Numbered from the stretch's first letter, positions 8,492 to 44,524 are shown. The stretch is DNA of 64,000 nt from Methanobacteriota archaeon (GCA_963720465.1 OY970393.1:2144001-2208000); one strand, 5' to 3'. Program-made: numbers and translations. The notes: a model not told the origin generated them from the sequence alone.

Positions 8492-8526
8492 CTGCCACTT
8501 TTTCTCTTTCCCTAGTTGGAGTCTGA

Positions 8527-9192: not shown

Positions 9193-9208
9193 GAACGTGG
9201 CGGACTAA

Positions 9209-10999: not shown

Positions 11000-11044
11000 G
11001 CGGCCACAGCGTGCTTCTCTTGCGTCGAAGCCGCCGGAGATCGG

Positions 11045-12733: not shown

Positions 12734-12757
12734 ATCACCGCCCCGAAGACCCTGCCT

Positions 12758-13726
12758 TCAATACGCTCTCGAAATCATGTAGTCGGCAAGTTTGAGCAGT
12801 TTGCGTTTTGCTTCTGAATCGGCTAGCTTGGCGAGTCGCAACTTGCCGGCTCGGAGAATCTCAGTTGCCGTTTCCATCGCGTAATCGATTGATCCCGCAT
12901 CCTGTAAATCTTTAATTGCCACTTCGATTGCTTTTTCGCTTGTGAGTTGTGACGGGTCAGGTCTGATGCCGTGCTTGAGTCCGTGGATCATGACTAGTGT
13001 CATCTTGCCCTCTAGTAAGTCACTAGCCCTATCTTTTCCAAGCACTTCACGCGCCGTAATCAAGTCGAGCACATCATCGCGGATCTGGAAGCATATGCCC
13101 ATAGCTATTCCAAACTCCCACAGGACGCTCACTTCGCTGTCGGTGCCGCCTCCAAGTATTCCCCCCATCGCCAAACCAGCTGCGTAGAGCACAGCTGTCT
13201 TTTTTTGGACCATTTCGAGATAGTCGGCCTCCGATATGTTTTTGTTATTTTCGAACTTAATATCCAGCCACTGCCCTTCGCAGATGTGTAGGCATGCCTT
13301 CGAGAGGAGCCTAAGACATTTTGTTGCATTTTCTGGTTCTGTTTTTGTGTAGGAAAGCACCTCGAAGGCTTTAGCATAAAGTGCATCGCCTGCTAAGACG
13401 GCTTCTGACATACCCCATTTTGTGTGGACGGTCTCTATGGAACGTCTTGTCGCGTCTTCGTCCATAATATCGTCGTGAATCAGCGTGAAATTGTGGATGA
13501 GCTCCACTGAAACGGCTGCTGGAAGTATTGTCTCAACAGCAATCTTAGGTTGCACTGCTTCGGCGCCCAACAGCAAAACCACTGGGCGCAGCCTCTTTCC
13601 GCCAGCTTTAATAAGATGTCGAGCGGCTCTGTACAACTCCTCAGGGAAAACTACAGGAACATACTCGTCAAGCGCATCATCGATAATTGTCTTTCTTTTG
13701 AGCAAGTCGTCGTCCAAATTGCTCAC
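12758..13726 (-). CDS. idsA: Geranylgeranyl diphosphate synthase (polyprenyl synthetase)
   Basis: GGKRLRP, HDDIMD and QIRDDVLD Asp-rich motifs; GTG 13726 follows an AGGAGG RBS. Confidence 0.93.
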   Translation of the reverse strand: MSNLDDDLLKRKTIIDDALDEYVPVVFPEELYRAARHLIKAGGKRLRPVVLLLGAEAVQPKIAVETILPAAVSVELIHNFTLIHDDIMDEDATRRSIETVHTKWGMSEAVLAGDALYAKAFEVLSYTKTEPENATKCLRLLSKACLHICEGQWLDIKFENNKNISEADYLEMVQKKTAVLYAAGLAMGGILGGGTDSEVSVLWEFGIAMGICFQIRDDVLDLITAREVLGKDRASDLLEGKMTLVMIHGLKHGIRPDPSQLTSEKAIEVAIKDLQDAGSIDYAMETATEILRAGKLRLAKLADSEAKRKLLKLADYMISRAY

Positions 13727-13790
13727 TCTTGGCCCCTCCTTGAGATGCTTTTGCGTGCAATGCACCTCGGGCGGAGGTTTTTCCCCGCCT

Positions 13791-15131
13791 TCAAGGTCTC
13801 ACCGCAATATTCTGGCCATTTCTTAGAAGGTGAATATTGTCCCTTAGGCTGTAACCTGCTTCTTCTGCAAGTTCTACGTAGGAGCTTGTCATGGTTAGAT
13901 CCCCGTGCGTGGGAAAAATATGGTCTGGCTTGAGCATCTTGATCAGCTCCCAGTGGTCTTCGCGGGCTGCGTGGCCCGACACGTGAACATCAGTATAAAG
14001 CCGTGCCCCTTGCATTTTGAGCTTGGTTTCTACTGAATATCGATTAGCCGCGTTTATTGGGGTTGGTATCACCTCGGCAGAAAACACTATTTTGTCTCCG
14101 GGCGCGACTTTATAAGGGGTCAGCTCGTTTGCTACCCGCGTGAGCATCGCTTCCGGTTCTCCTTGATGCCCCGTCATAATAGGAAGATATTTTTCTTTCC
14201 CTTCCTGCGCCACTCTCCTCAGTACCTTTTCTACAGATCGTCTATTCCCGTAGACTCCAATGTCATTCGGAAGCTCGACATATCCCATCCTTTCTGCGGT
14301 TCCTAGGTATCGTTCCATAGAGCGACCGAGGACCAGCGGGCGCCGGTCCATCTCGCGAGCTGCTTCGAAGATCGTCTTTACGCGGGCTATATGTGACGAA
14401 AACGTGGTTACGAGCACCCCATTGCCTTCTTCTTCAGTGCCGAGCAGAACGTCACGCACCAAGTCTTTCGCTATCTGTTCTGATGGGGTCTTTCCCGCCT
14501 CCTTTACGCGAGTACTTTCGACGATCAACGCGAGCACTCCGTCTTTTCCCAAACTCTTTAGGCGATTGAAGTCGGGGGGTTTGCCAATAACAGGCGTCCG
14601 ATCAAGCTTGAAATCGTTCGCATAGACCAGGGCACCGGCCGGCGTATGCAGCACGGCGAATATTGGGTCGGGGATACTGTGCGTTGCTCGTACAAATTCA
14701 ACTGCTATATCGGGAGTTATTTGATAAACCTGTCCTGCTTCGAGCGTGTACAGGGGGTTCTCGACGCCGAACTTCTTCTCAACGCGGATCTGTTGTGCGA
14801 TCAGCTCCGCCGTAAACGGCGTGGATATTATCGGGGCTTCGTACCTATGCGCAAGCTTGGGGACGGCGCCTATATGATCGAGATGTCCGTGCGTGCAGAC
14901 TATCGCCTTCACTGATTTTTTTGCTTTACTCAGCATCGCGTCATTTGGTATCGCGCCCATCTTGATAAGGTCGATAGAATGCATCTTCTCGATTTCTGCA
15001 TCCTCGTGAATTGCAATTCGATCGAGTCTAAGGCCCATGTCTATAATCACTATGTCTTCGTTCACTCGGATCGCAGTCATGTTGCGTCCGACTTCTTCGT
15101 AGCCGCCAATTGCGTTAACTTCTATCTCCAA
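13791..15131 (-). CDS. rnj: Ribonuclease J (beta-CASP)
   Basis: GGYEEVGRNMT, THGHLDHIG, HVSGHA. Confidence 0.95.
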   Translation of the reverse strand: MEIEVNAIGGYEEVGRNMTAIRVNEDIVIIDMGLRLDRIAIHEDAEIEKMHSIDLIKMGAIPNDAMLSKAKKSVKAIVCTHGHLDHIGAVPKLAHRYEAPIISTPFTAELIAQQIRVEKKFGVENPLYTLEAGQVYQITPDIAVEFVRATHSIPDPIFAVLHTPAGALVYANDFKLDRTPVIGKPPDFNRLKSLGKDGVLALIVESTRVKEAGKTPSEQIAKDLVRDVLLGTEEEGNGVLVTTFSSHIARVKTIFEAAREMDRRPLVLGRSMERYLGTAERMGYVELPNDIGVYGNRRSVEKVLRRVAQEGKEKYLPIMTGHQGEPEAMLTRVANELTPYKVAPGDKIVFSAEVIPTPINAANRYSVETKLKMQGARLYTDVHVSGHAAREDHWELIKMLKPDHIFPTHGDLTMTSSYVELAEEAGYSLRDNIHLLRNGQNIAVRP

Positions 15132-15135
15132 AGTG

Positions 15136-16200
15136 CTACCTCCTCACCTGAAGCTCGGCCAGATTGAATCCCCGTTGTTGCAGTATCTGCCTAGTTTCGC
15201 CAGTAATGACCAGCGGGCGTTGCTTTAGATCAGTGAGTTTCTTACATCCAGTTAGGAACATTGCGACTTTTAATTCTTCAACGAACGCCGTTATCTCGCT
15301 TAGCACATATTTGGTACCTTTGAATGCGGGTTTTAGCAGTGGCAAGCCTATGCCGCACAACGACGCTCCGAGTGCAATACACTTGGCGACGTGAAGGCCG
15401 TTCCTGATCCCGCCAGTTCCGATCACGGGTAAGGTGCGGGATTCTAAAATGGAGATTGCGGTCGGTATGCCCCAGTCGTCATAGAGCGCCCCCAACCTCC
15501 CTAGTCGGGGGTCCGTCTGAGCGCGGTACGATTCGACTCTTGCCCAGCTCGTGCCCCCAGCGCCGCCTACATCAATTGCAGAAGCGCCTGCCTTTTTTAA
15601 CTCAGCTGCGACTTCTCTCGAAATCCCGGCGCCCGTCTCTTTGGCGATCACTGGCACCCGAAGAGAATCGGCAAGTGATTTCATCGCGTCGAGGCATCCT
15701 TCAGCGTCTGTATCCCCCTCTGGTTGCACTGCCTCTTGCAGGAAATTCAGATGAATTGCCAATGCATCTGCTTCAACCATATCGATTAAGCGGTCAATGA
15801 TCTCCATATCATATTCCTTGACTTGTGTGGCCCCAATGTTGGCCACTACAAAAGCGCTGGGGGCTCGCTCTCGAACTATGCTGAACGACTCGACTTGGTC
15901 AGGATGTTCAATTGCTGCGCGCTGACTTCCCACGCCAATGCCGATGCCGAGTCGCTCTGCGGCCTCTGACAACGCAGCGTTGATAGCAGTTGTCTCTTCG
16001 TGCCCGCCTGTCATTCCCGCTATAAAGACGGGAGCGGTGAACTGCCTTTTTAAGAACGTGGCAGTCGCATCGATCCTTGACTTTGTCAATTCAGGAACTG
16101 CGTTGTGGACGAATCTGATATCATCGAGGCCCGTTCTTCCTGATTCGACATCTTCAGCAGCACAGAGCATTAGATGCTCGATTTTTCGGTTCGTTATCAT
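15136..16200 (-). CDS. fni: Type 2 isopentenyl-diphosphate isomerase
   Basis: RKIEH, GMTGG, GSQR, HLN..QE, KETG, GGTSW. Confidence 0.96.
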   Translation of the reverse strand: MITNRKIEHLMLCAAEDVESGRTGLDDIRFVHNAVPELTKSRIDATATFLKRQFTAPVFIAGMTGGHEETTAINAALSEAAERLGIGIGVGSQRAAIEHPDQVESFSIVRERAPSAFVVANIGATQVKEYDMEIIDRLIDMVEADALAIHLNFLQEAVQPEGDTDAEGCLDAMKSLADSLRVPVIAKETGAGISREVAAELKKAGASAIDVGGAGGTSWARVESYRAQTDPRLGRLGALYDDWGIPTAISILESRTLPVIGTGGIRNGLHVAKCIALGASLCGIGLPLLKPAFKGTKYVLSEITAFVEELKVAMFLTGCKKLTDLKQRPLVITGETRQILQQRGFNLAELQVRR

Positions 16201-16961
16201 TCTTTTTCCATGGAGATCGTCGTACCCCCATCTTGGTGCGACGTTAAAAACCTGGTGATATTGCCGTCGTAAGCTGCGTTAAATATCTCAGACTGAATAC
16301 CTGACTTAGCAATCTCCAGCAGCTGCACAACTTTGTGTAACATCCCCCCAGTTACGTCCGTAGACCTAGAACCAAGAATTCCGTCTCGGTATTTTTCAAG
16401 CTCACTAGGGTTAAGATGGTTCAGTTTTCTGTTTCGATACATGATTCCATCGACGTCTGTGCCGACGCCTATTTTTTTGGGGCGCATCTTTAGTGCCAGA
16501 AACGCTACTATTTGATCACCTGACAGGACGTTGAAGCCGTCTATGCGATCCATTACGACATCGCCGTGAAGTACCGGAATGATATTGTTGTTAAGCATCA
16601 ACTCTAACGCGTTCGTATCAAAATGTGCGATCCTACCTGCGTCGAGCGTAGCGCTATTAAGCGGGTGGATCGGCAATGCGGCAGCGCCTTGAGACTGGAG
16701 TTCGTCTATGAATGCGGTGTTTAGCGAGCGCACGGCGCAATGGGTCTTCCACATTCCGCTTGCGCTAAGACCTTTGGATAAGTACTTGACAACTTGCGGG
16801 TGTCCAAAGGAGCCCGCCCCGTGGATAAGAATAAGACGTGAACTCTTTGCGTTGGCGATTTGTCGAGCGACCATACGCACGTTATCTTCTCGCAGGGTGC
16901 TCTCTCGCCCTTTGTCTGTCAATACAGAGCCGCCGATTTTAAGCACTATCATGTTGGTCAC
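16197..16961 (-). CDS. ipk: Isopentenyl phosphate kinase
   Basis: KIGGSVLTDK, HGAGSFGH, DVTGGM; located in the mevalonate cluster. Confidence 0.92.
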   Translation of the reverse strand: MTNMIVLKIGGSVLTDKGRESTLREDNVRMVARQIANAKSSRLILIHGAGSFGHPQVVKYLSKGLSASGMWKTHCAVRSLNTAFIDELQSQGAAALPIHPLNSATLDAGRIAHFDTNALELMLNNNIIPVLHGDVVMDRIDGFNVLSGDQIVAFLALKMRPKKIGVGTDVDGIMYRNRKLNHLNPSELEKYRDGILGSRSTDVTGGMLHKVVQLLEIAKSGIQSEIFNAAYDGNITRFLTSHQDGGTTISMEKE

Positions 16962-16966
16962 GCTGG

Positions 16967-17890
16967 TTATGCCTCTACATGCAGGCCTAAACTAGAAATC
17001 GCAGTGGTCAGCACTAGAGCACCCTGTTTCGCGATGGCTTGTGTAACGTGGTCGACGTTTCCGTCTGTTGCAATCGCCAACACGCATCCTCCACGGCCAG
17101 CGCCGGTGATTTTAGCACCGAGCGCCCCTGCTGTTCTCGCTGCGTAGATTAATTTGCTCAGTACAACGTCGCTTACCCCGAGCGACTCGAGGAGTCCTTG
17201 GTTGATATTCATAAGCTCGCCTACGCTGACGAGGTCTCCATCTGCAAGCTTCTGTTCTCCCAAGCGCGTGATATCTCCCATTGAAGACATCACGTCACTC
17301 AGCACAGAAGGGTACTTCTTTTTCAGATCCGATACAAAGGCGATGACGTCGCGTGTTGACCTCTCAACGCCGGTTGCGCCGATTATGATTGGCAGGTCGG
17401 GCAGTGCGAGATGAGATGTTTTGGCTCTCTCCACTAAGACCACACCGCCGGTTGCAGAAACAAAGGTATCTGCGGGGCTCGCTTTGCCCTGAACTTCGTT
17501 TTCGACCTTATGGCCTATATTCGCTACTGTTTCATTATCGAGTTCAATGTCGAGGCTCTCAGTCAGAGCTTTTATAGTTGACACTGTAACTGCTGCGGAG
17601 GAGCCTAACCCCTGTCGCGCCGGCACTTCTGACCGTACCTTTATCTCAGCACCAAAGTCCGTTTCAAACAGTTGTTTGATTATTTTGGCGGCACAACAGG
17701 CGTACTTAAACTCTTCGCTGGAGCAGTTCGCGCGCTTATCCATGGCATCTATCGTGATTTTCCCCGAAGATACGAGTTCTACTGAAACGCACACACGCAA
17801 GTTTATCGCACACGCTATCGCCGGCTCTCCGTACACAACAGCGTGTTCTCCAAACAGATAGATCTTGCCGGGGGCCGAACAGGTTATCAT
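16967..17890 (-). CDS. mvk: Mevalonate kinase
   Basis: APGKIYLFGEHAVVYG, GLGSSAA, GAKITGAGRGG. Confidence 0.95.
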   Translation of the reverse strand: MITCSAPGKIYLFGEHAVVYGEPAIACAINLRVCVSVELVSSGKITIDAMDKRANCSSEEFKYACCAAKIIKQLFETDFGAEIKVRSEVPARQGLGSSAAVTVSTIKALTESLDIELDNETVANIGHKVENEVQGKASPADTFVSATGGVVLVERAKTSHLALPDLPIIIGATGVERSTRDVIAFVSDLKKKYPSVLSDVMSSMGDITRLGEQKLADGDLVSVGELMNINQGLLESLGVSDVVLSKLIYAARTAGALGAKITGAGRGGCVLAIATDGNVDHVTQAIAKQGALVLTTAISSLGLHVEA

Positions 17891-31130: not shown

Positions 31131-31699
31131 ATGAGCCGTTTTATAGCCGTGATATCGGTGCTGGCTGTTTTTTTGTTATAGCGAGCTCCTCTTTAGCGGT
31201 GGGCGTCAAAGCCCAAAATGAGGTGGCGTGGGTTTATGACTACCCGACAGGGATGAAAGCTGCGGCCGAGGAAAACAAGCCCGCGATGATATACATTCAC
31301 GAAGACTGGTGTCCTCGATGCAGAAACATGGATCAAAACACTTGGACGGATAGTGAAGTTATTCAACTTTCGTCGAACTTCGTGAACATAAACGTGGTCG
31401 GGACTCAACAGGGAACGCTATATAATTATAGCAAGCCCCCACTGATTGTTTTCACGGACCCTCAAGGAAGGGTCATTGTCGAACAAAACGCAGAACTGTC
31501 AGCTAGTCAGGTGACTGCCCTGCAACGGCAGGTGCTCGCACAAGAGCCGTCCTCGTCCCCTTCGGCGACAGGTAATCCTCCAACCACAAGCGTTTCGACC
31601 AAAGCCGCGGGGGTGCCCGGTTTTGAAGCCATCCCTGCAGTCGTTGGCATATCGACTATCGCGCTCGTGGTGTCGCGCATCCGTAAGAGCCCGCGATAA
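31131..31699 (+). pseudogene. Secreted thioredoxin-fold PGF-CTERM protein, frameshifted at a T7 tract between signal peptide and mature domain
   Basis: ATG 31131 encodes MSRFIAVISVLAVF then stops; the -1 frame continues into a WCPRC thioredoxin domain, S/T/P linker and VPGFE-TM-basic tail. Confidence 0.75.
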
Positions 31700-33836: not shown

Positions 33837-34148
33837 AATTCCTCGTTTCAGTCTTCCCTTCTTTCTCGCAAATGAGCTGCGACACGGCAAATAGTTCAAG
33901 GAGCCTTTGTGCAGAGGTTTCTTAATTCTTTTGATGAAAATCGCATTTGAGAATACGAGGATCTTGATTTGCTCTAAAAAATGAGCGTCGGGAGATGTCA
34001 AAGATCATGTTAGCAATATTAGGGGGTTACTAGCTCACGACCGCGCTTTGGACCGGTCAGAAACAAATATATTTTATAACGCGTATCGTAGCAAGCGTTG
34101 CGAAAATACGCCGTGCTTTGCGATATTCTGCAACAACTTTGTATGCAA

Positions 34149-34241
34149 GCTCCGGTAGTGTAGCACGGCCAATCATGTTGGCCTTTCGAACTCAAGCAGT
34201 GAAGCAAGCCAACGACTCGGGTTCAAATCCCGACCGGAGCA
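34149..34241 (+). tRNA. tRNA-Glu(TTC) with 18-nt intron at 37/38 (34189-34206)
   Basis: GCTCCGG...CCGGAGCA; TTGGC-CTTTCG|intron|A-GCCAA; clean bulge-helix-bulge. Confidence 0.93.
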
Positions 34242-34710
34242 TCCAGTAACTATCGTAAGCGTCTCTACGTAGCGGTGACGTGCCTCGCAATTCTCCAAAA
34301 CTGACCGAACCAAGATATTACTCGATGTAAGAGGTCCCGGGGAACTTCGTGATCCATTGCTCCGAGTGTTCCGCAGGAGTCGTGCGTTCAGGTATTTGGT
34401 TTGCAAAATGGTTTGGTACGGCGCTAACTGCAGATCACTGGGTTATGCCAAGCACGAAGTTGGGTCGGGTCTCCTCTACGTTTATCTAATTTGACTGCTT
34501 GTTGGAATTGTGGGACGGCGTCCGTACAAAAAGTGGAATTATCAAGTTTGGCGTGCAGCAGTTCAAGAGCTTCATCGCAGCGCCGAGCAACGTCTAGTAA
34601 TTATGGTCGACGGCGTATTAGCTTTGGACAGAGAGCCCCTTGGGCGAGCGTACTAAGAACCTTCTTCGAGGCCCCCTGATGCCTCAGCAAAAGTGCTATC
34701 TAGTCAAAAA

Positions 34711-34725
34711 ATAGGCTTTTATATG
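34711..34725 (+). promoter_or_regulatory. TATA box of tRNA-Leu(TAA)
   Basis: A-rich BRE followed by TTTTATAT about 25 nt upstream of the tRNA. Confidence 0.6.
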
Positions 34726-34748
34726 TCCGTTCGGTATGTCAACATAGG

Positions 34749-34849
34749 GCGGAGGTAGCCAAGCCAGGCCAAAGGCGCAGGACTTAAGAACCTTTGTTTG
34801 GGATATCCTGTTGCGAAGGCATTCGTGGGTTCGAATCCCTCCCTCCGCA
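34749..34849 (+). tRNA. tRNA-Leu(TAA) with 16-nt intron at 37/38 (34789-34804)
   Basis: GCGGAGG...CCTCCGCA; CAGGA-CTTAAG|intron|A-TCCTG; long variable arm. Confidence 0.92.
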
Positions 34850-34891
34850 CTTCTGCCAAATGATAGGGTATTTTGCTGCACCTGAACACAA

Positions 34892-35728
34892 TCAACGGAT
34901 CGCATTTGCGAGATCTCTGACAGCAGAAACGACTTCATATGGATTTGCACCCCAATGCACCACGTAACCCTTCTGTCCAAAAAGTTGGGTGGGTCCGACC
35001 CTCGCTGACTTGCAACATTTTGCAATGAAAGGCTTGCTCGGTCTTATTGTTTTCGTCGGACACATGTTGACATGTTCGAATTCTAGCCCGTGAACTCGCG
35101 CTTCGAGCACTTGTTTCGAAATGTCGCACCCCAGTAGAACGGCGTGCTCACCGATGTGAATGTCGCGGTTATTGAGGCTATTGCTCCCAATTCCTGACGC
35201 TGAACACGGATAAATCGTGGCTCCGCGTGCACTCCTTAGATCTTGTATAACTGGCGTAAAACACACGGACAAGTCCCCAAAAATGCCAGCATTGTCGAGT
35301 TTCTTGATGAGCGTGATAAGGTGTGGTGGATCTGGGGGGGATACGTCAAATACCTCAATCTCGGTTACGCTGGCGAGGTCTGGGTCGTAAACGAACGTCC
35401 AATGAAGATCAAATCCTTGATAAACGACTGCTTTTATAGGGGGCTTACACAGTCGGGTTGCTACAGTAATTAGCCTGCTTCTGTTGAAGATGTCCGTCTT
35501 GCGTCTATGCACCAGAGTTTCGGCAAAGCCTGCAATCCTTTTGGCCTTCGATATCGTTCGGATCAAGCCGTTCCCCTCCAATTCGAGTTCGTAAACCGCC
35601 ACTTTTCCTTGCCAAAACAGCAGGACATAGTGCGATGAGAAATAGACGCGCTCACCCACTGTTGGTCGAGATGTTTCATCATCGCATTCTCTCACAGCGA
35701 CGTCCTTGCAATGATCGGGAAAAATCAC
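34892..35728 (-). CDS. Cys-rich hypothetical protein
   Basis: 278 aa, 4 bp downstream of the aksF-like gene; YPC, LGC, MCP, KCC, HWG motifs. Confidence 0.75.
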   Translation of the reverse strand: MIFPDHCKDVAVRECDDETSRPTVGERVYFSSHYVLLFWQGKVAVYELELEGNGLIRTISKAKRIAGFAETLVHRRKTDIFNRSRLITVATRLCKPPIKAVVYQGFDLHWTFVYDPDLASVTEIEVFDVSPPDPPHLITLIKKLDNAGIFGDLSVCFTPVIQDLRSARGATIYPCSASGIGSNSLNNRDIHIGEHAVLLGCDISKQVLEARVHGLEFEHVNMCPTKTIRPSKPFIAKCCKSARVGPTQLFGQKGYVVHWGANPYEVVSAVRDLANAIR

Positions 35729-35732
35729 GTTG

Positions 35733-36689
35733 TCACCTTAGATTGCGTATTATTTCGCGCGCCACTTCGTCAGTCGAACTCGTGCCACCCAGGTCCCGTG
35801 TCGTGATGCCTTTGCGTATCGTCTGCTTGACTGAAACGTCTACTAAGGAGGCTTTTTCGCTTTTGCCTGCCCATTCGAGCAACATGCTAGTACTCAAAAT
35901 AGCCCCTATTGGATTTGCTATGCCACGCCCAGCGATGTGGGGCGCCGAGCCGTGCACAGGCTCAAAAATGGCGAATTTTGGTCCGATATTCGCACTCGGA
36001 CAAAGCCCGAGCCCTCCGATAAGCGCTGCAGCTTCATCGGACAGAATATCGCCAAATAAGTTCGACGTCAAGATGTGATCGAACATTTCAGGGTGTCTTA
36101 TGAGATTGTATGCAGCCGCGTCGACGTACATCTCGTTATAGGGCACATCTTGCTCCTGCAAAACACGTACGCAGACATCTCGAAAGAAAATATCTGACTT
36201 GAGCACGTTTGCTTTATGCACTATCGTAACGGTTTTTACGTTGCGCAAGGTGCTTGCGAACGATGCAAGCCTTTCCACATTAGCGCGAGTAACCACTCGC
36301 TGCGTGACGGCTATGTCGTCAGAAAGCTCTTCGATGCCGGAGTACAACCCCTCGAGGTTCTCTCGTATTATAGTGAGGTTCAATTCATAGGGAGTTAGAG
36401 AGTAAGATCGAAAAGGTCGTAGATTCACGAAGAGATCGAGTGTTTTTCTTAGTCTGACGAGAACGCTGCTCCCTTGAACGCTGGTTACAGCCCCCAAGAG
36501 CATACAATCCGCTTGTGTAATTAAACCGATATCCGCATCGGTTATTGGTGTGCCTTCTCTGGCCCATTTGGAGTATCCTATGTCAACTTGGATGAATTCT
36601 GGATCGTTCAATAATAAAGTGAGAATCTCAACACAAGGAGGTATGACCTCTTTGCCGACTCCATCTCCCTCAGCAACAGCTATTATCAT
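35733..36689 (-). CDS. aksF: Homoisocitrate/isopropylmalate dehydrogenase family (AksF-like)
   Basis: EGDGVGKEV, RENLEGLY, HKANVL, NLFGDILSDEAA, FEPVHGSAP; adjacent to hacA/hacB/aksA. Confidence 0.75.
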   Translation of the reverse strand: MIIAVAEGDGVGKEVIPPCVEILTLLLNDPEFIQVDIGYSKWAREGTPITDADIGLITQADCMLLGAVTSVQGSSVLVRLRKTLDLFVNLRPFRSYSLTPYELNLTIIRENLEGLYSGIEELSDDIAVTQRVVTRANVERLASFASTLRNVKTVTIVHKANVLKSDIFFRDVCVRVLQEQDVPYNEMYVDAAAYNLIRHPEMFDHILTSNLFGDILSDEAAALIGGLGLCPSANIGPKFAIFEPVHGSAPHIAGRGIANPIGAILSTSMLLEWAGKSEKASLVDVSVKQTIRKGITTRDLGGTSSTDEVAREIIRNLR

Positions 36690-36732
36690 ATGCACTGAGT
36701 AGCAAACCGCTTGATGCATCCGCGTAGACCCG

Positions 36733-37239
36733 TTAAGGATCGCTCACTGGCGGACTCGCGTTGCGTGGATGCCTCTTTCTATGTTCGACTAACCCACCAT
36801 CTTGGAGGATCTCCTGCAGGAATTTAGGGAGCTCCTCACCTTGTACGACCCTGCTGCGGGTTCTCACAAGCCCGGAAGATAAGTCGACCTCAATCTCATC
36901 ACCCGCTGTAACAGAATCAAGAACGTCTGCTTCGATAATTGGCAAGCCCACGTTGATTGCATTCCTGAAAAAGATCCGAGCGAAAGATTTCGCAACGACA
37001 CATCCGATCTTGGCGTATTTGAGCGCGAGCGCTGCTTGCTCTCGTGATGACCCGCAACCGAAGTTCTTGCCGGCAACTATTATATCCCCTTCACGCGGCG
37101 AAAATTCCGTGCCAAACCCTTCCATTGCGTGTTGTGCGAAGACGTTAACGTCAGTTGTTCTCAGATACTTGCCGGGTATGATCAAATCAGTGTTGACATT
37201 ATCGCCGTACTTCCACACTTTTCCCTTGATGCGCATCAT
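36733..37239 (-). CDS. hacB: Homoaconitase small subunit (AksE/HacB)
   Basis: [28 protein letters not shown]; the YLRT loop is typical of methanogen homoaconitase. Confidence 0.85.
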
Positions 37240-37347
37240 AGTCTATTTGAAGATGTGGCGATATAAAACATACGGGGGATTGCTACGCTTCGGCTGTGAG
37301 CGTAAAGCTGAAAAAATGTTTAATAGTTCCGAAACAACTTCGTTGCC

Positions 37348-37683
37348 ATGTCATTGCTATTGTCCGCGCAGGAAGAGTACCTAATTAATCAAAAGAAAGC
37401 TTTTCTCACCCACAAGGTCAAGCACAACGCGCAAGAGATTGAACAAGAGATCGACGAAAGAATGTGGAAGCTAGACGTCGAAAAAATCGACACCAGTGAG
37501 TTCATGGCGACGCTTGTCGTGCGAGAACCCATGATCTCAATCAGTACCGGAGATATTGTGACCTACCGAGGTGTCCCGAGAAAATTCACGGTTAGAAGCC
37601 CATCGCTTGAATATCTCCTCGATGCCGTTGAAAAGATCCTCATGGAACAAATTGAGGAAATCAAGAGATACGCCGGCGTTTGA
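37348..37683 (+). CDS. Hypothetical protein
   Basis: 111 aa ATG ORF filling the hacB-hacA gap, with an upstream TTTAATA; protein-like composition. Confidence 0.65.
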   Translation: MSLLLSAQEEYLINQKKAFLTHKVKHNAQEIEQEIDERMWKLDVEKIDTSEFMATLVVREPMISISTGDIVTYRGVPRKFTVRSPSLEYLLDAVEKILMEQIEEIKRYAGV

Positions 37684-37710
37684 ATCCCCTGATAAAAAGA
37701 GTAATAGGCT

Positions 37711-38976
37711 CTATAATTGCCGCGGATCAGCGATCTCGCCTTTGAGGGCCGTCGCCGCGGCGGTGGCGGGAGAGGCAAGGTAAACGAGCCCCTCAGCACC
37801 CATTCTCCCCTTGAAATTTCTGTTGGAAGTAGAAAGACAAGCCTCTCCCCGTCCCAAAACCCCGTTATGCGCGCCGAGACATGGCCCGCACCCGGGACTG
37901 CAAACGGTAGCTCCGGCTTGAATTAATGTCTCCAGGACCCCCGTTCGTATAGAATTTAATAGCACGAGCTTCGACGCTGGAACGATGATCGTCCGTACGG
38001 CAACTGTCTCACCGCGTAGAATGGTCGCTGCCGCCTGAAGATCTTCAAAACGTCCATTAGTGCACGAACCTATGAACACTTGGTCAATAGCTGTACCTGC
38101 TACCTCTTCGACATCTTTCACGTTGTCCACCTGATGGGGACAAGCGACCTGAGGCCCCAAGTCATCGACCTTGACGTTCAGTTCATCGGCGTACACGGCA
38201 TTGTCATCAGAGTAACAAGGCTGGTACTCCGCTTGGGGTGTAAGGCGCTTGAGGTACGCAAAAGTCTTGTGATCTGGGGGTACAATGCCTGCCTTCGCGC
38301 CTACTTCCACTGCCATATTGCTCAAAGTAAGCCTACTTTCCAAAGTCAGGTCGCCTGTCGTCGTGCCATAGAATTCCAAAGCTTTGTAGGACGCGCCATC
38401 GGCCCCCATAATCCCTGCAATGTTAAGAATCACGTCTTTCGCGCTTACATGGTCTCTGAGTTTTCCGTCGAGAACAATTCTCAGCGTTTCAGGCACCTTT
38501 AACCACAGCGTTCCTGTTGCAAACACCTCTGCTATATCGGTCGCACCCACTCCGGTTGCGAAAGTTCCTAATGCTCCGTATGTGCACGAGTGAGAATCAG
38601 CTCCGACAACCAAGGTGCCTGGAAGGGCAAGCCCGTGCTCAACCATCAGTTGATGGCATATCCCGTCACCGACGTCAAAGAAGTTCGTAATTCCGTGGCA
38701 TTTTGTCCACGTCCGGATCGTTTTTTGAAGGGTTGCGGCTACCTCAGTGCTGGCTGGGGCAATATGGTCAAAGATAATGGCGATCCTTTGTGGGTCCCAA
38801 ACAGAGGTAGCGCCCATGTCCTCAAATGCTTTTACGCCAAGCACACTCGTGCCATCATGGGCCATTGCTGCATCAACGCGCCCCAGAATAAAATCCTTGG
38901 CGCTTGCCGCTTTTCCTGACGCCCTGGAGAGAATCTTCTCGCTAATGGTTCTTGGGGCATCCAAAGTGCTGTTCAC
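37711..38976 (-). CDS. hacA: Homoaconitase large subunit (AksD/HacA)
   Basis: [45 protein letters not shown]. Confidence 0.85.
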
Positions 38977-39140
38977 CGCGTACTATTGCTGCCCGTGGAT
39001 TATCAACCTATGGATGTTTTGCCCGTCAACCAGCGAAGATGCGTTGGAGTGCCGACTTCGATCTCAGCAACTAGCGTGACGCCGGACGGCCCGCGTGGAC
39101 TGGTCGATCTGAAGACCAACAACATATTTAAGTTGCGGCT

Positions 39141-40331
39141 ATGAATGTGTACAGCGAAATTCCATCAGGATCGTTTATGGATCACTTTGGATCTTCTTCA
39201 TTGCCTAAGGCAGTTATTGGCCCGATAGAGATTTGTGACGTCACGCTGCGTGACGGTGAGCAGGCTCCTGGCGTCGTTTTTGGTGTTGACGAAAAAGTTG
39301 AGATTGCGACCAAGCTGGATGCAATTGGCGTTGAGATGATAGAAGCGGGATTTCCCGCCGTTTCAGCGAAAGAGAAGGTTATGGTGAAAGAAATTGCTAA
39401 TTTGGGTCTAAACACCAAGATATGCTGCCTTTCGCGAGCGATTTTCCACGACATCGATGAAGCGTTAGATTGCGATGTAGATGTGGTGGGACTGTTTATG
39501 GCTACGTCAGATCTGCATCTCAAGTACAAGTATCATCGCAGCTTTGATGAAATGCTGGAGTGCGCCCTGTCAACGCTCGAATATGCAAAGGAACACGGGC
39601 TCATTGTGAGGTTTGCGGCAGAAGACGCGACTAGGACCGATCCAGAAGTGCTCAAGCGCTTTTTTAGACAAGGTGAGGATCACGGGGCCGATTACGTTAA
39701 CATCGCAGATACGGTGGGTGCACTGAGACCGTCTACGTGCTATGATCTGGTGTCTGCGATGAAAACGGTCGTTAACGTGCCGCTTTGTATTCATTGCCAT
39801 AACGATCTCGGCATGGCCGTAGCAAACACTATCACGGCTGCAGAAGCCGGGACGTTTCAACTCCACACGACGGTGAACGGGATAGGAGAACGAGTCGGAA
39901 ATACCCCGCTTGAGGAACTGCTTGTCGCGCTGCGCCTACAGTTTGGAGTCGATACATACGACCTTTCGAAATTGATGGCGCTGTCCAAAACAGTCGAACA
40001 TCATTCACGGTTGCGTTTGCCGAAGAACAAACCGGTCGTCGGCTTGAATGCATTCTCTCACGAATCCGGCATACACGTAGCGGCTGTGCTCGAGGAGTCC
40101 GAGACGTATGAACTATTCTCGCCTGACTTAGTGGGCAACAAGAGACGGATCGTCATTGGCAAGCACACCGGAAAAAAAGCCCTGCAGTATGTCATCGCGC
40201 AGTTAGGCTATCGTCCGACCCGAGATGAGCTCTGTCAGATCCTCGACGACGTAAAACGCGTTTGTGAAACAAAGAAATCAGTCTCTCAGGAGGAGCTCGA
40301 GGATATAATTAGAACCGTGATGTACCGTTAG
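39141..40331 (+). CDS. aksA: Homocitrate synthase family (AksA-like)
   Basis: DVTLRDGEQ, EDATR, HCHNDLG, HESGIH, GKHTG; no LeuA regulatory domain. Confidence 0.8.
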   Translation: MNVYSEIPSGSFMDHFGSSSLPKAVIGPIEICDVTLRDGEQAPGVVFGVDEKVEIATKLDAIGVEMIEAGFPAVSAKEKVMVKEIANLGLNTKICCLSRAIFHDIDEALDCDVDVVGLFMATSDLHLKYKYHRSFDEMLECALSTLEYAKEHGLIVRFAAEDATRTDPEVLKRFFRQGEDHGADYVNIADTVGALRPSTCYDLVSAMKTVVNVPLCIHCHNDLGMAVANTITAAEAGTFQLHTTVNGIGERVGNTPLEELLVALRLQFGVDTYDLSKLMALSKTVEHHSRLRLPKNKPVVGLNAFSHESGIHVAAVLEESETYELFSPDLVGNKRRIVIGKHTGKKALQYVIAQLGYRPTRDELCQILDDVKRVCETKKSVSQEELEDIIRTVMYR

Positions 40332-41832
40332 CCCCGGAGTTTTGACGAGGACCGTATTTTGAGCAGGCGGCTCGTATGACGACGACGAGCGTTCCTGTAG
40401 AGTCGCTTGCGGCTTGCAGAAGATCTGCATATGACATTTCATTCATGTCCGTTGCGTTCACTAACTTGTAAGTGATACCGTAGTTTCGGCACACGGCACC
40501 GACCAAATCAGAGATCTCGGGCGTCGGCTGCCCGCCCGTTATGGCTGATATTCGGTTTTCGAGTACGAACACTTTTACATTCCGCTTAAACACTGCCGCG
40601 CTTATTAGTGCGGCGATGCCGCTATGTAAGAACGCGTAATCTCCTAGTATTGCAAGTCCGCCTTGTTCAAACCCCGAAGCCACGCCAATTGCTGAGCCGA
40701 GTGAATATGCTGCGTCAATCAGTTTAAAAGGTGGATTGGCTGTCCGTATTACGCAGCCCATGTCCCCTGCAATCATCGCATCAACTTGGGCGAGAGCGCG
40801 GTAGAAAGGCAAGAAGGGGCAATCATCGCAGATGTCTTCCGTATAACGTCTGGTTTCGAGTGTCTCAACATCAAACCTTGCCGTTATATAATCTGCCTCA
40901 ATATAGGCCAACGCTTTAGTCACATCGTTTGACGTAAGTTCCCCGAAACGGGGAACGTGCCCAGACAGTTTGCCGAGGACTTTCGCGTGAACAGATTCTT
41001 CAACAAGCGGTGACCCCTCTTCAACGACTATGACCCGGTTGTGCTTTTTGAGAAACGAATCAGTTCGGCGCTGACATAGCGGGTTGACTACGCCGAGTCT
41101 AAGGTGTGCTACGTCGTGTCGTCCCTGGATTGCATCATCCACCAGCGTTGATGCATAGCCTGCAGAAATAATGCCGATGGCGCCGTCGCCGTCTTCTTCG
41201 TTGAGATCTGTCGTTTCAGCAAATTGCAGCATCTTAGGATACGTGTGTCTGAGAAAATACTGATGTCTACCCAAATGCGTGAGGTTCCAGATGCTCTTAT
41301 CGATGCTCTTACTGACGCGTCGTGCAGGTGGCACCCTCTCAACTACGCCACCGGTATTCAGAAGCCTGCCTGTTATTCTTACGATTATCGGCACTGAGAG
41401 TAGTGCGGATAGTTCAAAAGCCTCTAGCGCACAATCATACGCATTACGGGCGCTGTATGGATCCATCACCGGGATTTCGGCTATCTTACCGTAATATCTC
41501 GAATCCTGCTCGTTTTGCGAAAGTTTTGCACCTGGATCGTCGCCTGCGATTACGACTAGCCCAGCACCTATTCCGTGAGTGGCCGCGGTAATCAAGGAGT
41601 CCGACGCCACATTCAATCCAACGTGTTTCGTTACAAAAACTGATCGTGTACCAGATGCGGCAGCCCCTAAAGCCAAATCGATCCCGACCTTCTCATTAGC
41701 AGCGGGAATCCAAATGGGCCGCAAATTTTCAATGATTTTAGTGACAGGAAATCCGATAACCCCTGTGGCTACGCCGGCGCCGGCATCGAATATCCCATAT
41801 GTAAGTGCATTTAAGCCGTCTGTTTTAAACAT
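40309..41832 (-). CDS. Indolepyruvate oxidoreductase alpha-like ThDP protein lacking the ferredoxin domain
   Basis: NEKV, KHVGLNVASD, DDPG..SQNEQDSR, CDDCP, GDMGC, GDYAFLHSG...LEN, TGGQ. Confidence 0.85.
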   Translation of the reverse strand: MFKTDGLNALTYGIFDAGAGVATGVIGFPVTKIIENLRPIWIPAANEKVGIDLALGAAASGTRSVFVTKHVGLNVASDSLITAATHGIGAGLVVIAGDDPGAKLSQNEQDSRYYGKIAEIPVMDPYSARNAYDCALEAFELSALLSVPIIVRITGRLLNTGGVVERVPPARRVSKSIDKSIWNLTHLGRHQYFLRHTYPKMLQFAETTDLNEEDGDGAIGIISAGYASTLVDDAIQGRHDVAHLRLGVVNPLCQRRTDSFLKKHNRVIVVEEGSPLVEESVHAKVLGKLSGHVPRFGELTSNDVTKALAYIEADYITARFDVETLETRRYTEDICDDCPFLPFYRALAQVDAMIAGDMGCVIRTANPPFKLIDAAYSLGSAIGVASGFEQGGLAILGDYAFLHSGIAALISAAVFKRNVKVFVLENRISAITGGQPTPEISDLVGAVCRNYGITYKLVNATDMNEMSYADLLQAASDSTGTLVVVIRAACSKYGPRQNSGANGTSRF

Positions 41833-42203
41833 CTTTGTGAGCGTTAATGGCACACCCCGTACAAAAGGCGCACGCGGTCTAGGCGAGGTTGGTCCTCAGC
41901 CACGCTTGTCGAGTATTTGTCTGTCCGTTCTGGGCAAGATGCTTCAATCCTTCTGCTCTGAGCTTGTGCACTATTCACGGCTCCAAGCCGCAGTGCGTGT
42001 TCAACTATGCAGCTCTTAGTGGTTGGCAACGCTTTGATTTCAGCAACAAAAATGTCCTCCCACCACAAGATGAATGTTAGTTTAGCGCATTCAGTTATCA
42101 ATTTTTGCAAGTTTGTTGCATGGGGGATTTCGCAGCCACTTAATTGACAGAATGTGAATCATAACTTTTTTATGCGCAACGATCTTAAAGGACAGCGATA
42201 ATT

Positions 42204-42419
42204 ATGGCAGAAATTCCACTGGCAGTCGTTTTGCGAATAATGAAAGTTGCTGGAGCTGAAAGGGCTAATCGTACGGCAGTCAAAATGATTGCCGAGAAAG
42301 CTGAGGGTTATGGCAGCGACGTTGCCAAAGAGGCCGTTGTGCTGACGAAGCTCGCGGACCGAAAAACGATCTCGGCAAATGACATAAAACTAGCAGCGGA
42401 ACGAGTCAATCGGCGCTAA
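42204..42419 (+). CDS. Archaeal histone (HMf family), variant
   Basis: EIPLA..RIMK.AGAER, RKTI..DIKLA histone fold. Confidence 0.92.
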   Translation: MAEIPLAVVLRIMKVAGAERANRTAVKMIAEKAEGYGSDVAKEAVVLTKLADRKTISANDIKLAAERVNRR

Positions 42420-42496
42420 CGCTCAGCACATCGTTCGTAATATAAAGCAAGGGCCCACTTCGAGCTCCTCTCTCGAGGCTACTCAGGCTCGTGCAA

Positions 42497-42529
42497 ACCC
42501 CCTATGAAGGCACCCCCTATGAAGGCACC
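42497..42529. repeat. Perfect 15-bp tandem duplication ACCCCCTATGAAGGC x2
   Basis: 42497-42511 and 42512-42526 are identical, followed by a partial ACC. Confidence 0.9.
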
Positions 42530-42591
42530 ACGTCGTGGTCCCGTTTTTAGGAAACGTGGCTTGCGGTAACCACCAGTATCGAGCCAGAGAA

Positions 42592-42662
42592 TGCGGTAGC
42601 CGGGACTCGAACCCGGGTTAAAGGCTTGGGAAGCCTTTGTGCTGCCTCTACACCACTACCGC
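42592..42662 (-). tRNA. tRNA-Gly(CCC)
   Basis: GCGGTAG...CTACCGCA; anticodon arm AAGGC-TTCCCAA-GCCTT. Confidence 0.95.
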
Positions 42663-42781
42663 GATAATACAGCTACATTCTTCGCTCCCAAACCATAAAT
42701 ATTATCATCCAGGTCCAACTCACAACACAGCCTAAACGCAAGGCATTTAAGCGCAGATGCTGATGTAGGTTGGGACTTTTT

Positions 42782-44524
42782 ATGCCAAATAACCTCAGGA
42801 CACCTATTGTTGCAGTGCTCGGCCACGTGGATCACGGTAAAACGACGATGCTTGACAAAATTCGCGGCACCACTATTGCTGCCCAAGAACCTGGCCTAAT
42901 CACTCAGCACATCGGCGCAACGGAAGTCCCGTTAGACATTATTGCGCGGCTTTGCGGTTCGCTCCTGGAAGGTATACGCCTCCCTGGGTTGCTATTTATC
43001 GATACGCCTGGCCATCACGCTTTTACGACGCTGCGCGCACGTGGCGGCGCTTTAGCAGACATCGCAATACTTGTTGTTGACATTAATGAGGGCTTCCAGC
43101 CGCAGACCACAGAAAGCCTCAATATCTTGAAACGCTACAAAACGCCCTTTATCGTCGCGGCTAACAAGATTGACAAAATACACGGATGGCTTTCCCATGA
43201 TAATATGATGTTCACCGAAGCGTTTAAGCTCCAGAGCGAGCGGACTCAACGCCTTCTTGACGACAGAATATACGTGCTGATAGAGGAGCTCTACAATTTG
43301 GGCTTTAGTTCAGATCGGTACGACAGGGTTAGAGATTTCACTAAAAACATAGGCGTTGTCCCAATAAGCGCGCGAACAGGCGAAGGCATCCCTGACCTCC
43401 TCATGGTTTCGCTTGGTCTCGCGCAGCGATTCCTCGACAAGGATCTGAGGCTTAATGCCAACGGTCCTGCATTTGGCACGGTAATAGAAATCAAAGAAGA
43501 AAAAGGGTTCGGCACGACCCTTGATGCTATCATATACGATGGCGTTCTGCATGCTGGTGATCGGATCGTAATCGGTGCATTGGGACGACCAATCGTCACG
43601 AAAATCAGAGCGTTGCTAAAACCAGAATCGACGGGGGCTCTCAAGAGGGTTAGGACAGTGACTGCAGCCGCGGGAGTGAAGATAGCAGCCCCGGGAATTG
43701 AAAATGCGCTTGCAGGTTCGCCGCTTAGAGTTACAACGGATGATACTGATGAAGTCGTCGCTGGCGTCGAATCTGAAATGCGTGAAATGGCGATCAGCAC
43801 TCAAGATATAGGCGTTATAATCAAAGCAGACACTATCGGCGCCCTAGAAGCGCTTGCAGGAGAGCTAAGTCGCAATGAGGTCCCTATCAGCATAGCCAAT
43901 CTAGGCGACGTCTCTCGTCGAGACGTTATTGAAGCTGAGACCACAAGTGACCCATTGTATGCCGTTGTACTTGGCTTCAACGTCCATGTCTTGCCCGACG
44001 CCAAAGAAGCAGCCGAGAAGTCGAGAGTTCGCTTATTCGTTAACGACGTGATCTACGGCTTAATCGAGGATTACCAGACCTGGGTTGAAAAACAAAAAAC
44101 GCTGTACGGCAAAAAGCGTTACGAGACTATCGTGAGGCCCGGCAAATTCAAGATACTGCCTGGCTATGTTTTCAGACAAAACAAACCAGCCATAGTCGGC
44201 ATTCAGGTGCTGGGCGGCACACTGCGTAATGGCGTCTACCTGATGCGAGAAGATGGAGCCAGGGTCGGCACACTGAAAGGCATGCAAGATAGAGGTGAGA
44301 ACGTCAGCGAGATAGGTGCAGGAAAAGAGGTCGCAGTTTCTATTGATGGACCCACAGTCGGAAGACAAATAAATGAAGGGGATGTACTCTACGTCGACGT
44401 GCCAGAAAAGCACGCAAAGGTAATGGAGCAAGAACTCTACGATGCGCTTGACCAAAGTGAGCGATTGATGTTCGATGAGTTTTTGACGATCAAGCGCAAA
44501 GATAACCCATTTTGGGCCAAGTGA
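42782..44524 (+). CDS. infB: Translation initiation factor aIF5B (IF-2)
   Basis: GHVDHGKT, ITQHIGA, DTPGH, NKID; no intein. Confidence 0.98.
   Translation: MPNNLRTPIVAVLGHVDHGKTTMLDKIRGTTIAAQEPGLITQHIGATEVPLDIIARLCGSLLEGIRLPGLLFIDTPGHHAFTTLRARGGALADIAILVVDINEGFQPQTTESLNILKRYKTPFIVAANKIDKIHGWLSHDNMMFTEAFKLQSERTQRLLDDRIYVLIEELYNLGFSSDRYDRVRDFTKNIGVVPISARTGEGIPDLLMVSLGLAQRFLDKDLRLNANGPAFGTVIEIKEEKGFGTTLDAIIYDGVLHAGDRIVIGALGRPIVTKIRALLKPESTGALKRVRTVTAAAGVKIAAPGIENALAGSPLRVTTDDTDEVVAGVESEMREMAISTQDIGVIIKADTIGALEALAGELSRNEVPISIANLGDVSRRDVIEAETTSDPLYAVVLGFNVHVLPDAKEAAEKSRVRLFVNDVIYGLIEDYQTWVEKQKTLYGKKRYETIVRPGKFKILPGYVFRQNKPAIVGIQVLGGTLRNGVYLMREDGARVGTLKGMQDRGENVSEIGAGKEVAVSIDGPTVGRQINEGDVLYVDVPEKHAKVMEQELYDALDQSERLMFDEFLTIKRKDNPFWAK

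Follow-up and report, generated by a model that had tools for sequence, protein, structure and literature searches.

Introduction

Coenzyme B (CoB) is required by every methyl- or alkyl-coenzyme M reductase. For the steps of its synthesis that follow 2-oxosuberate, namely decarboxylation, formation of the thiol, ligation of threonine and phosphorylation, we know of no gene assignments in the time since the labelling studies made in the late 1980s. The subject of this article is a stretch of 64,000 nucleotides (nt) from a Methanobacteriota archaeon (GCA_963720465.1 OY970393.1:2144001-2208000), referred to as the window, with positions counted from its first letter, in which genes encoding an AksA-like homocitrate-type synthase, the two subunits of a HacA/HacB-like homoaconitase and an AksF-like homoisocitrate-type dehydrogenase are flanked by the genes of a DUF7714 protein and of a thiamine diphosphate (ThDP) protein derived from IorA. 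The best explanation, advanced here with moderate confidence and based on sequence comparisons, is that this locus represents the CoB elongation branch of an mcr-bearing peat methanogen together with two neighbours that would act late in the pathway. In the accessible text of Kaster et al. (2011; PMC3087415) only elongation enzymes are listed for CoB, and a paper from 2025, as far as its accessible part goes, still calls the pathway unknown (PMC12068725).

The closest described counterparts of the elongation genes are those of Methanocaldococcus jannaschii, encoding AksA, HacA-HacB (AksD/E) and AksF. The window proteins resemble them in enzyme family and domain make-up, in a synthase devoid of a regulatory domain, in the YLRT loop of the small subunit and in the presence of separate Leu paralogues in the genome. 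They differ in that all four genes lie within 4.6 kb together with two additional conserved genes, in that the NCBIfam equivalog cut-offs are not reached, and in being known here from sequence.

For the DUF7714 protein the closest characterised relative is XcbA of Xanthobacter autotrophicus Py2, the final enzyme of bacterial coenzyme M (CoM) synthesis, which reduces sulfoethanethioaldehyde to CoM; according to the accessible text it has a [2Fe-2S] cluster and a reddish-brown colour, and its authors reported for it no homologue of known function (PMC9457059). Both proteins share full-length, profile-reciprocal homology and five invariant Cys, and the chemistry proposed below for DUF7714, from thioaldehyde to thiol, is alike. 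In contrast to XcbA, the DUF7714 protein belongs to a separate archaeal branch, its gene is linked to hacB/aksF and not to xcbB-E and has no adjoining pyridoxal phosphate-dependent lyase, and it is proposed to act on the C7 acid of CoB and not on sulfoethanethioaldehyde.

The ThDP protein belongs with IorA and the alpha/beta modules of 2-oxoacid:ferredoxin oxidoreductases (OFOR), with which it shares the Pyr and PP ThDP domains, the ThDP motif, four aligned Cys and the fold, whereas the C-terminal 2x[4Fe-4S] ferredoxin domain of IorA, an insertion and an adjoining IorB are lacking and its orthologues form a separate score class. The role proposed for it is analogous to that reportedly played by ComDE, a ThDP-dependent sulfopyruvate decarboxylase yielding an aldehyde that is later turned into a cofactor thiol. 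Unlike ComDE, the window protein has an OFOR-type fold and would represent another ThDP lineage, no ComDE family being found among the matches of the window proteins.

Organization and Conservation of the Cluster

All six ORFs that an initial annotation, made from the sequence alone, had placed in this part of the window were found there, and the four elongation genes indeed lie within about 4.6 kb (35733-40331). On the minus strand the order of transcription is hacA (37711-38976, 421 aa), hacB (36733-37239, 168 aa), aksF (35733-36719, 328 aa) and the DUF7714 gene (34892-35728, 278 aa), which is the final one; the last three follow each other with gaps of just 13 and 4 nt. The aksA gene (39141-40331, 396 aa) lies on the plus strand, separated from the divergent hacA by 164 nt (38977-39140) presumed to be the promoter region, and converges with the minus-strand ThDP gene (40309-41853, ORF of 514 aa), with an overlap of 23 nt.

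The association of DUF7714 with the elongation genes was followed in a scan of 185,579 species genomes, which yielded 211 relatives; in the best 80 of these 211 with flanking sequence, a hacB and/or aksF homologue lies beside the DUF7714 gene in every case (80/80). At E<=1e-15, HacB was detected in 18 and AksF in all of the 19 loci belonging to the source organism's own family, and in 59 and 54, respectively, of 61 loci labelled Methanosarcina, Methanolobus, Methanoperedens or ANME-2, the misses being mostly contig ends. Gene order varies, with hacB-aksF-DUF7714 in one lineage and hacB-DUF7714-aksF in others, and protein identity falls to 37-40% across the locus groups, so that the linkage has been kept through rearrangement. 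Copies of the cluster at 53-87% identity to the window DUF7714, or Methanosarcina-like copies, occur on some contigs recorded as metagenome-assembled genomes (MAGs) of Bathyarchaeia, Acidiferrales, Nanoarchaeia or Alphaproteobacteria (L022, L033, L081, P0116); these records are most likely binning errors.

The ThDP gene is tied to the other end of the cluster. Of the 19 own-family loci, 17 have it next to aksA, the two misses being contigs of 3.3 and 1.8 kb. In family f9, presumed to be Methanocellaceae, all three complete genomes (2.4-3.2 Mb) are collinear with the window (ThDP-aksA-hacA-hacB-aksF-DUF7714). A short form of the protein (375-438 aa), which has lost the middle domain and kept the four Cys, is encoded directly upstream of aksA in 6/6 loci of families f3, f12, f14, f24 and f25, presumed to be Methanomicrobiales, while in presumed Methanosarcinales/Methanotrichales aksA was found 4-8 kb from the ThDP gene in three of the nine loci examined. 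Synteny of the flanking genes with aks genes, which the initial annotation had made a test of its proposal, thus extends for both well beyond their own lineage.

As to co-occurrence with mcr, another test set there, DUF7714 is confined in the phylum sample to mcrA-bearing families, and neither flanking family is universal among mcr-bearing archaea. On the whole, the outcomes of the tests named in the initial annotation were mostly favourable to its proposal. When 401 genomes sampled evenly across the phylum were screened (tallies summed by hand per family), 177 contained DUF7714 and 220 mcrA. Of the genomes with DUF7714, 165 also carry mcrA, and the remaining 12 are multi-contig drafts of mcrA-bearing families; conversely, DUF7714 was detected in none of the 85 genomes from the 12 families without any mcrA. 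Between the controls, the family is present in M. acetivorans. Both flanking genes quite probably work in the same pathway as the elongation genes.

The Elongation Genes and the Pathway They Serve

The source genome is a single contig of 2,313,764 bp scored as 91% complete, and near-identical contigs are found in peat and bog MAGs, including isolate bog_38. It contains mcrA as well as a leu set (LeuA/CimA and LeuC/LeuD/LeuB) separate from the window, both of which the initial annotation had required. There are four HMGL-like synthases in this genome, the AksA-like one among them, and three paralogous sets of large subunit, small subunit and dehydrogenase. One of these sets is LeuC/LeuD/LeuB at ~1.486-1.489 Mb (LeuB with 414.5 bits vs a cut-off of 393), and two LeuA-type synthases (517 and 471 aa) pass NF002085 (cut-off 517), LeuA with 679 bits and a second LeuA/CimA with 599; leucine and isoleucine synthesis are therefore accounted for. 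Another set, at ~250-255 kb, comprises a divergent synthase, an isocitrate dehydrogenase-like enzyme and the most aconitase-like large subunit, and would make citrate, isocitrate and 2-oxoglutarate. The latter set (G000:C1:248000-257000) adjoins a homologue of the LarA-type nickel-dependent malate racemase (525 bits vs 500) and a CobT-like gene.

The small-subunit loops differ among the three sets. The YLRT loop announced in the initial annotation is present in the window protein (G-K-Y-L-R-T) and only there, the LeuD paralogue having YLVL and the ~250-255 kb set YKYDE; according to Drevland/Jeyakanthan, the YLRT loop reportedly marks homoaconitase and the YLVM type isopropylmalate isomerase. 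Lysine synthesis is expected to be independent of the window genes, since DapA was found (351 bits vs a cut-off of 206) and no LysX scored above its cut-off in the source genome (best 33.7 vs 275.6 bits). The same holds for biotin here, because no match to BioW and no BioB above cut-off (best 42 vs 225 bits) were detected in that genome.

The AksA-like synthase consists of HMGL-like (270 bits) and HCS_D2 (82.8 bits) domains, without the LeuA regulatory domain, as in AksA-type enzymes, and is 52-61% identical to the ThDP-adjoining aksA products of other families vs 42% to the LeuA/CimA paralogues. The AksF-like protein (Iso_dh, 289 bits) is 44-56% identical to the DUF7714-linked aksF products of other orders and 30-34% to its own paralogues. 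For the HacA-like aconitase large subunit these values are 59-62% (cluster-linked copy of f9) and 48-49% (own paralogues), and the protein passes the cut-offs of PRK00402 (585 bits) and hacA_fam (555 bits); the HacB-like aconitase small subunit reaches 212.5 bits with LEUD_arch (cut-off 108.95). The Aks/Hac naming used here is thus founded on the elimination of paralogues, the loop motif and synteny, and not on curated family membership. On these grounds the four genes are very probably the CoB elongation set.

The DUF7714 Protein, a Relative of XcbA

The DUF7714 protein matches Pfam DUF7714 (PF24830) over its residues 1-276 and profile positions 1-279 of 280 with 246.8 bits, against a gathering cut-off of 25 bits. 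Among NCBIfam models, the XcbA family (NF052538) is matched at 78.8 bits (E 4.2e-22, profile positions 35-291 of 293). When a profile built from 56 DUF7714 proteins was run over 1.84 billion representative proteins, just 219 were retrieved at E<=0.001. Forty-four of these were scanned, of which 29 (hand count) exceed the XcbA cut-off of 150 bits; the more distant full-length matches pass it with up to 324 bits, indicating that DUF7714 and XcbA form two branches within a single small superfamily. Among 20 aligned sequences, five Cys are invariant in both branches (C175, C201, C223, C238 and C239), which may be able to hold a [2Fe-2S] or other redox centre. The description of this flanking protein as Cys-rich was accurate, nine Cys being counted by eye in its translation.

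The AlphaFold model of the protein is of good quality (pLDDT 93, pTM 0.85). A Foldseek comparison with the PDB gave no match at E<=0.001, and the highest Z among 48,161 chains compared with VIA-align was 7.8, covering only residues 119-278 with generic alpha/beta domains, which is at noise level; the profile likewise met only a chance match (E 0.34) among PDB sequences. Based on its homology to XcbA and its linkage, the DUF7714 protein is proposed to catalyse the two-electron reduction of a sulfur adduct (thioaldehyde) of 7-oxoheptanoate to 7-mercaptoheptanoate, for which it would use an Fe-S cluster, a Cys pair or both, provided by the five conserved Cys. The chances that it is the thiol-forming reductase for 7-mercaptoheptanoate appear about evenly balanced.

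The ThDP Protein and an Operon of an mcrA-Free Family

Near-identical ThDP proteins in the databases have 507 aa, in comparison with the 514-aa ORF of the window, which makes the Met at position 8 of the ORF (~41832) the probable true start. The protein contains POR_N and TPP_enzyme_C domains, and its best NCBIfam match is IOR_alpha (TIGR03336), with 311.5 bits vs a cut-off of 650.9 and over profile positions 8-539 of 595. It aligns with IorA over the Pyr, middle and PP domains and keeps the ThDP motif; the alignment shows that the two-cluster ferredoxin domain at the C-terminus of IorA and the insertion after the TGxQ motif are both absent. Four Cys (C342, C345, C367 and C497) align with Cys of IorA, each being kept in at least 90% of 57 sequences. 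In the structural model (pLDDT 90.9), Foldseek matches with 5b46_A, 6n2n_A, 8ys5_A and 9bt4_A (E 1e-15 to 2e-14; TMq 0.48-0.51) support the fold of an OFOR alpha subunit, with the domain I/II arrangement of this group and the ThDP motif.

Within the phylum sample, orthologues of this protein form a score class of 244-1100 bits (ORFs of ~480-600 aa), from which the IorA paralogues separate at ~200 bits. The term orphan, applied to the enzyme in the initial annotation, is fair: no IorB-like gene adjoins it or occurs among the 15 neighbouring ORFs scanned, the remaining genome not having been searched for IorB. The ferredoxin domain has been lost and a CoA-binding partner does not adjoin; the protein is most likely a 2-oxosuberate decarboxylase. 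Flags of one TGA on many ThDP matches of family f2 were considered as a sign of recoding and rejected; in L129 the match overruns its own stop codon by 6 nt. A copy of true IorA in the source genome (G000:C1:479931-480558) comprises just the first ~208 residues, in two pieces and with an in-frame TGA; same-genus genomes carry an intact IorA of ~600 aa, and the copy is probably a gene remnant.

Further information on the place of the ThDP protein comes from family f16, represented by two genomes 98-99% complete. Both carry an orthologue-level ThDP match, and in neither were mcrA, DUF7714, a marker 11 protein above cut-off or an orthologue of the radical SAM gene (both described below) found. 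In the locus examined, from one of these genomes (L141, G030:C1:1760000-1778000, 7803-17728, minus strand), aksA-, hacA-, hacB- and aksF-like genes are followed by the ThDP gene, the start and stop codons of adjacent genes overlapping, and immediately upstream on the same strand there are genes encoding BioF (437.7 bits vs 426.45), a BioU-like protein, BioW and a BioB-like protein. BioW activates free pimelate, not pimeloyl-CoA. This arrangement locates the ThDP enzyme between 2-oxoacid elongation and pimelate. Most simply, the elongation of the chain to 2-oxosuberate would be followed by ThDP-dependent decarboxylation to pimelate semialdehyde and then by formation of pimelate. The f16 orthologue has lost all four Cys, which argues that a cluster is not needed for the decarboxylation itself.

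The ThDP gene therefore travels with elongation genes irrespective of mcr and DUF7714 only with mcr, a pattern expected if the former makes a shared C7 aldehyde and the latter a CoB-specific thiol. The ThDP protein would accordingly decarboxylate 2-oxosuberate to 7-oxoheptanoate, and on balance it is probably a 2-oxosuberate decarboxylase. The f16 operon has the appearance of a hitherto undescribed archaeal pathway by which 2-oxoglutarate is turned into pimelate for biotin; archaeal biotin synthesis was described as incompletely known in the accessible text of a 2018 paper (PMC6138646).

Candidate Genes Outside the Window

In presumed Methanosarcinales (L129, L131, L133, L136, L137 and L138) a gene of ~300 aa lies immediately upstream of the ThDP gene on the same strand. 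Its product has TiaS TCKD and FLD domain matches and corresponds to TIGR03280, methanogenesis marker protein 11 (marker 11), for which the controls M. jannaschii and M. acetivorans each have a match above the cut-off. The association is more extensive in presumed Methanomicrobiales (L158-L163), where in five of six loci a marker 11 paralogue, marker 11, a radical SAM gene, the short ThDP form, aksA, hacA, hacB, DUF7714 and aksF follow each other on one strand (for example L158:7759-16361, minus strand); in the sixth, the DUF7714 gene is divergent beside marker 11 and the marker 11 paralogue is split. Two own-family loci (L029, and L111 from a same-genus genome) likewise have the radical SAM gene, which gives weak LipS2/lipoyl-synthase-like matches, immediately upstream of the ThDP gene, and in one Methanoperedens locus it is found near hacB. 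In the source genome both genes are found away from the window, marker 11 at ~524.2-525.1 kb (L143:8168-9112, minus strand), after YcaO, TfuA and a HycI-like peptidase gene, and the radical SAM gene at ~1.395 Mb.

Marker 11 and the radical SAM gene are candidates for the steps not covered by the window, namely those of a sulfur donor, a threonine ligase and a kinase. TiaS is said to phosphorylate a carbonyl in an ATP-dependent manner ahead of amine attack, and also to phosphorylate its own Thr; because of this chemistry, marker 11 and its paralogue are attractive for threonine ligation and the final phosphorylation, a lead more than a result. A search of PDB sequences gave no match for marker 11 or the ThDP protein. 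The suggestion made initially, that the clustering may point to the missing CoB genes, has gained support as regards the decarboxylase and the thiol step, for which candidates lie in the window, but candidates for threonine ligation and phosphorylation have to be sought outside it. No paper was found in a literature search that names DUF7714 or that assigns the window genes, the ThDP gene or marker 11 to late CoB steps; subscription journals and supplements, which were outside the reach of this search, may hold such an assignment.

Alternative Explanations

Several observations weigh against the proposed assignment and are considered here together with the explanations they would favor. It is highly improbable that the elongation genes serve leucine/isoleucine or alpha-aminoadipate (AAA)-type lysine synthesis instead of CoB, even though none of the Aks/Hac equivalog cut-offs is reached: the AksF-like protein scores 298.8 bits with AksF (NF040619, cut-off 500) and 317.5 with AksF2_Meth (NF040626, cut-off 540), the HacA-like protein 502.2 bits with HacA_Meth (NF040615, cut-off 550), and the HacB-like protein 175.8 and 191.3 bits with HacB_Meth and HacB2_Meth (NF040604 and NF040625, cut-offs of 230 bits each). 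The Leu paralogues slightly outscore the window proteins on HacA_Meth (514.3 vs 502.2) and HacB2_Meth (206.8 vs 191.3), and the top-scoring models are generic archaeal ones of Leu type (LEU3_arch 361.8, LEU1_arch 459, IPMI_arch 561). The AksF-like protein does, however, top its paralogues in the genome, which reach 259.8/281.5 and 206.9/244.5 bits on AksF/AksF2_Meth, and both amino acid pathways are provided for elsewhere, by a distinct Leu set that passes the LeuA and LeuB cut-offs and has a YLVL loop in LeuD, and by DapA in a genome in which LysX was not found. Moreover, the window synthase has no LeuA regulatory domain and the genes stay linked to DUF7714, a family confined to mcr-bearing lineages. 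The possibility that the cluster makes pimelate for biotin in the source organism draws on the f16 operon, where aks-like genes and the ThDP gene stand with BioF, BioW, BioU-like and BioB-like genes in the absence of mcrA, and on 2-oxosuberate having reportedly been described by White's group as a precursor of both CoB and biotin; it is very unlikely for a genome (one contig, 91% complete) with no BioW match and no BioB above cut-off, which carries the DUF7714 gene that is missing from f16.

With respect to the flanking genes, DUF7714 might not be specific to CoB, acting as a second CoM synthase, an archaeal equivalent of XcbA with a thioaldehyde derived from sulfoacetaldehyde as its substrate, or more generally as an Fe-S protein that serves homoaconitase or AksF in redox reactions or repair. 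Its only characterised homologue, XcbA, makes CoM (accessible text of PMC9457059), and its score stays below the XcbA-family cut-off. In the accessible part of PMC12068725, MMP16, which is also found in the source genome, is the main CoM synthase of M. acetivorans and a mutant deleted in it still yields some CoM, so that a back-up CoM route exists; MMP16 and/or L-ASST are moreover proposed there for the formation of the CoB thiol (PMC12068725). DUF7714 was not found in 55 of the 220 sampled genomes with mcrA (families f4, f7, f10, f11, f17, f29 and one more), and it is missing from M. jannaschii, although these lineages must still make CoB. The 55 include a family with far weaker mcrA matches (E ~1e-42) and families with several weak mcrA-like copies. 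DUF7714 thus cannot be a universal enzyme, and the mcrA-positive families without it have only IorA-level ThDP matches; since a quarter of the sampled mcrA-positive genomes and M. jannaschii lack both flanking families, the corresponding reactions must be carried out there by other enzymes. Still, a function apart from CoB is judged unlikely, given that hacB and/or aksF adjoin the gene in all 80 loci and that no comDE or cysteate synthase match occurs among the annotated neighbours (no search was aimed at these genes), and for a homoaconitase helper its absence from f16, which keeps aks-like genes and homoaconitase without mcr, would be unexpected. The ThDP protein, for its part, could be a redox enzyme of OFOR type, performing oxidative decarboxylation of 2-oxosuberate or a different 2-oxoacid with a separate ferredoxin, or it could act with marker 11 in the maturation of methyl-coenzyme M reductase (MCR). 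In favor of redox chemistry, the methanogen forms keep four Cys aligned with the proximal [4Fe-4S] ligands of OFOR, and the fold agrees with OFOR alpha subunits (TM ~0.5 over ~390 columns). Likewise, the link between marker 11 and the ThDP gene, directly adjacent in presumed Methanosarcinales, may reflect MCR maturation, since in the source genome marker 11 accompanies YcaO and TfuA, the genes for McrA thioamidation. We regard either role as improbable: the protein has neither a ferredoxin domain nor an adjoining IorB-like or CoA-binding partner, its f16 orthologue is free of the four Cys and yet part of an aks-biotin operon with BioW, an enzyme that needs free pimelate, and the gene adjoins aksA in four lineages.

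Expression and Other Features of the Window

RNA libraries from 20 studies, most of them on peat, contain small shares of the stretch in a total of 23 runs. In four runs from four peat studies, contigs of up to 2917 nt and ~95% identity cover 39180-42057, that is, aksA and the ThDP gene, and a contig of 530 nt spans the hacA-aksA intergenic region (38795-39321). No contig of these four runs fell on 34800-38750 at >=93% likeness, which has no bearing on the expression of DUF7714, aksF, hacB, orf111 (see below) and most of hacA. The contigs show neither strand nor level and RNA libraries may contain DNA, which counts against them as evidence for the assignment; they lend weak support to the expression of aksA and the ThDP gene in close relatives.

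Between hacA and hacB there is a gap of 471 nt occupied on the opposite strand by orf111 (37348-37683, plus strand, 111 aa), a conserved ORF overlooked in the initial annotation. With tblastn it was found in the same position in 18 own-family loci at 58-95% identity; it has no Pfam or NCBIfam family, and an Atlas search gave scores <=0.80 only. By these comparisons, orf111 is a lineage-specific ORF. In family f9, by contrast, hacA and hacB are merely a few bases apart. Three further ORFs, 41844-42110 (minus strand), 41579-42019 (plus strand) and 34696-35025 (minus strand), were rejected as genes because of frame changes in relatives, or because overlap with the ThDP gene, the DUF7714 gene or a tRNA explains the similarity.

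The cluster is flanked by a tRNA recognised by Rfam only (34749-34849) and by a tRNA-Gly gene (42592-42662), with six large ORFs and one small between them; in an Rfam scan of 34000-43000, three tRNAs and no riboswitch or leader were detected. The matches at 34149-34241 and 34749-34849 (plus strand) are over-long for tRNAs (93 and 101 nt), suggesting introns, and the latter scores 46 bits with Rfam and has no ARAGORN call. Farther upstream, 31199-31699 (plus strand) encodes a thioredoxin-like protein in this methanogen genome, whose C-terminal tail is a sub-threshold match to the Heimdall-CTERM sorting domain (21.7 vs 24 bits).

Concluding Remarks

In the pathway proposed, AksA, HacA/HacB and AksF would lengthen 2-oxoglutarate to 2-oxosuberate, as expected from their families and from paralogue elimination, and the ThDP and DUF7714 proteins would convert the latter into 7-mercaptoheptanoate. 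More speculatively, the window and its relatives may outline most of the late CoB pathway in the Methanosarcinales-, Methanocellales- and Methanomicrobiales-type lineages and in the peat lineage to which the source organism belongs, with the ThDP protein as decarboxylase, DUF7714 forming the thiol, marker 11 and its paralogue, which have the fold of the TiaS kinase domain, in ligation and phosphorylation, the LipS2-like radical SAM protein in sulfur delivery, and a Cys-free form of the decarboxylase providing pimelate for biotin.

The two flanking genes are clonable candidates for long-missing steps of CoB synthesis and are present also in the genetically tractable Methanosarcina. If the assignment is correct, it would provide new targets for methane mitigation and, for the Aks-based production of nylon precursors, a native decarboxylase of C8/C7 2-oxoacids. 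It would also suggest that an archaeal route to pimelate and biotin has gone unrecognised, and would mean that bacteria and archaea use one family of Fe-S reductases to make the thiols of two different cofactors.

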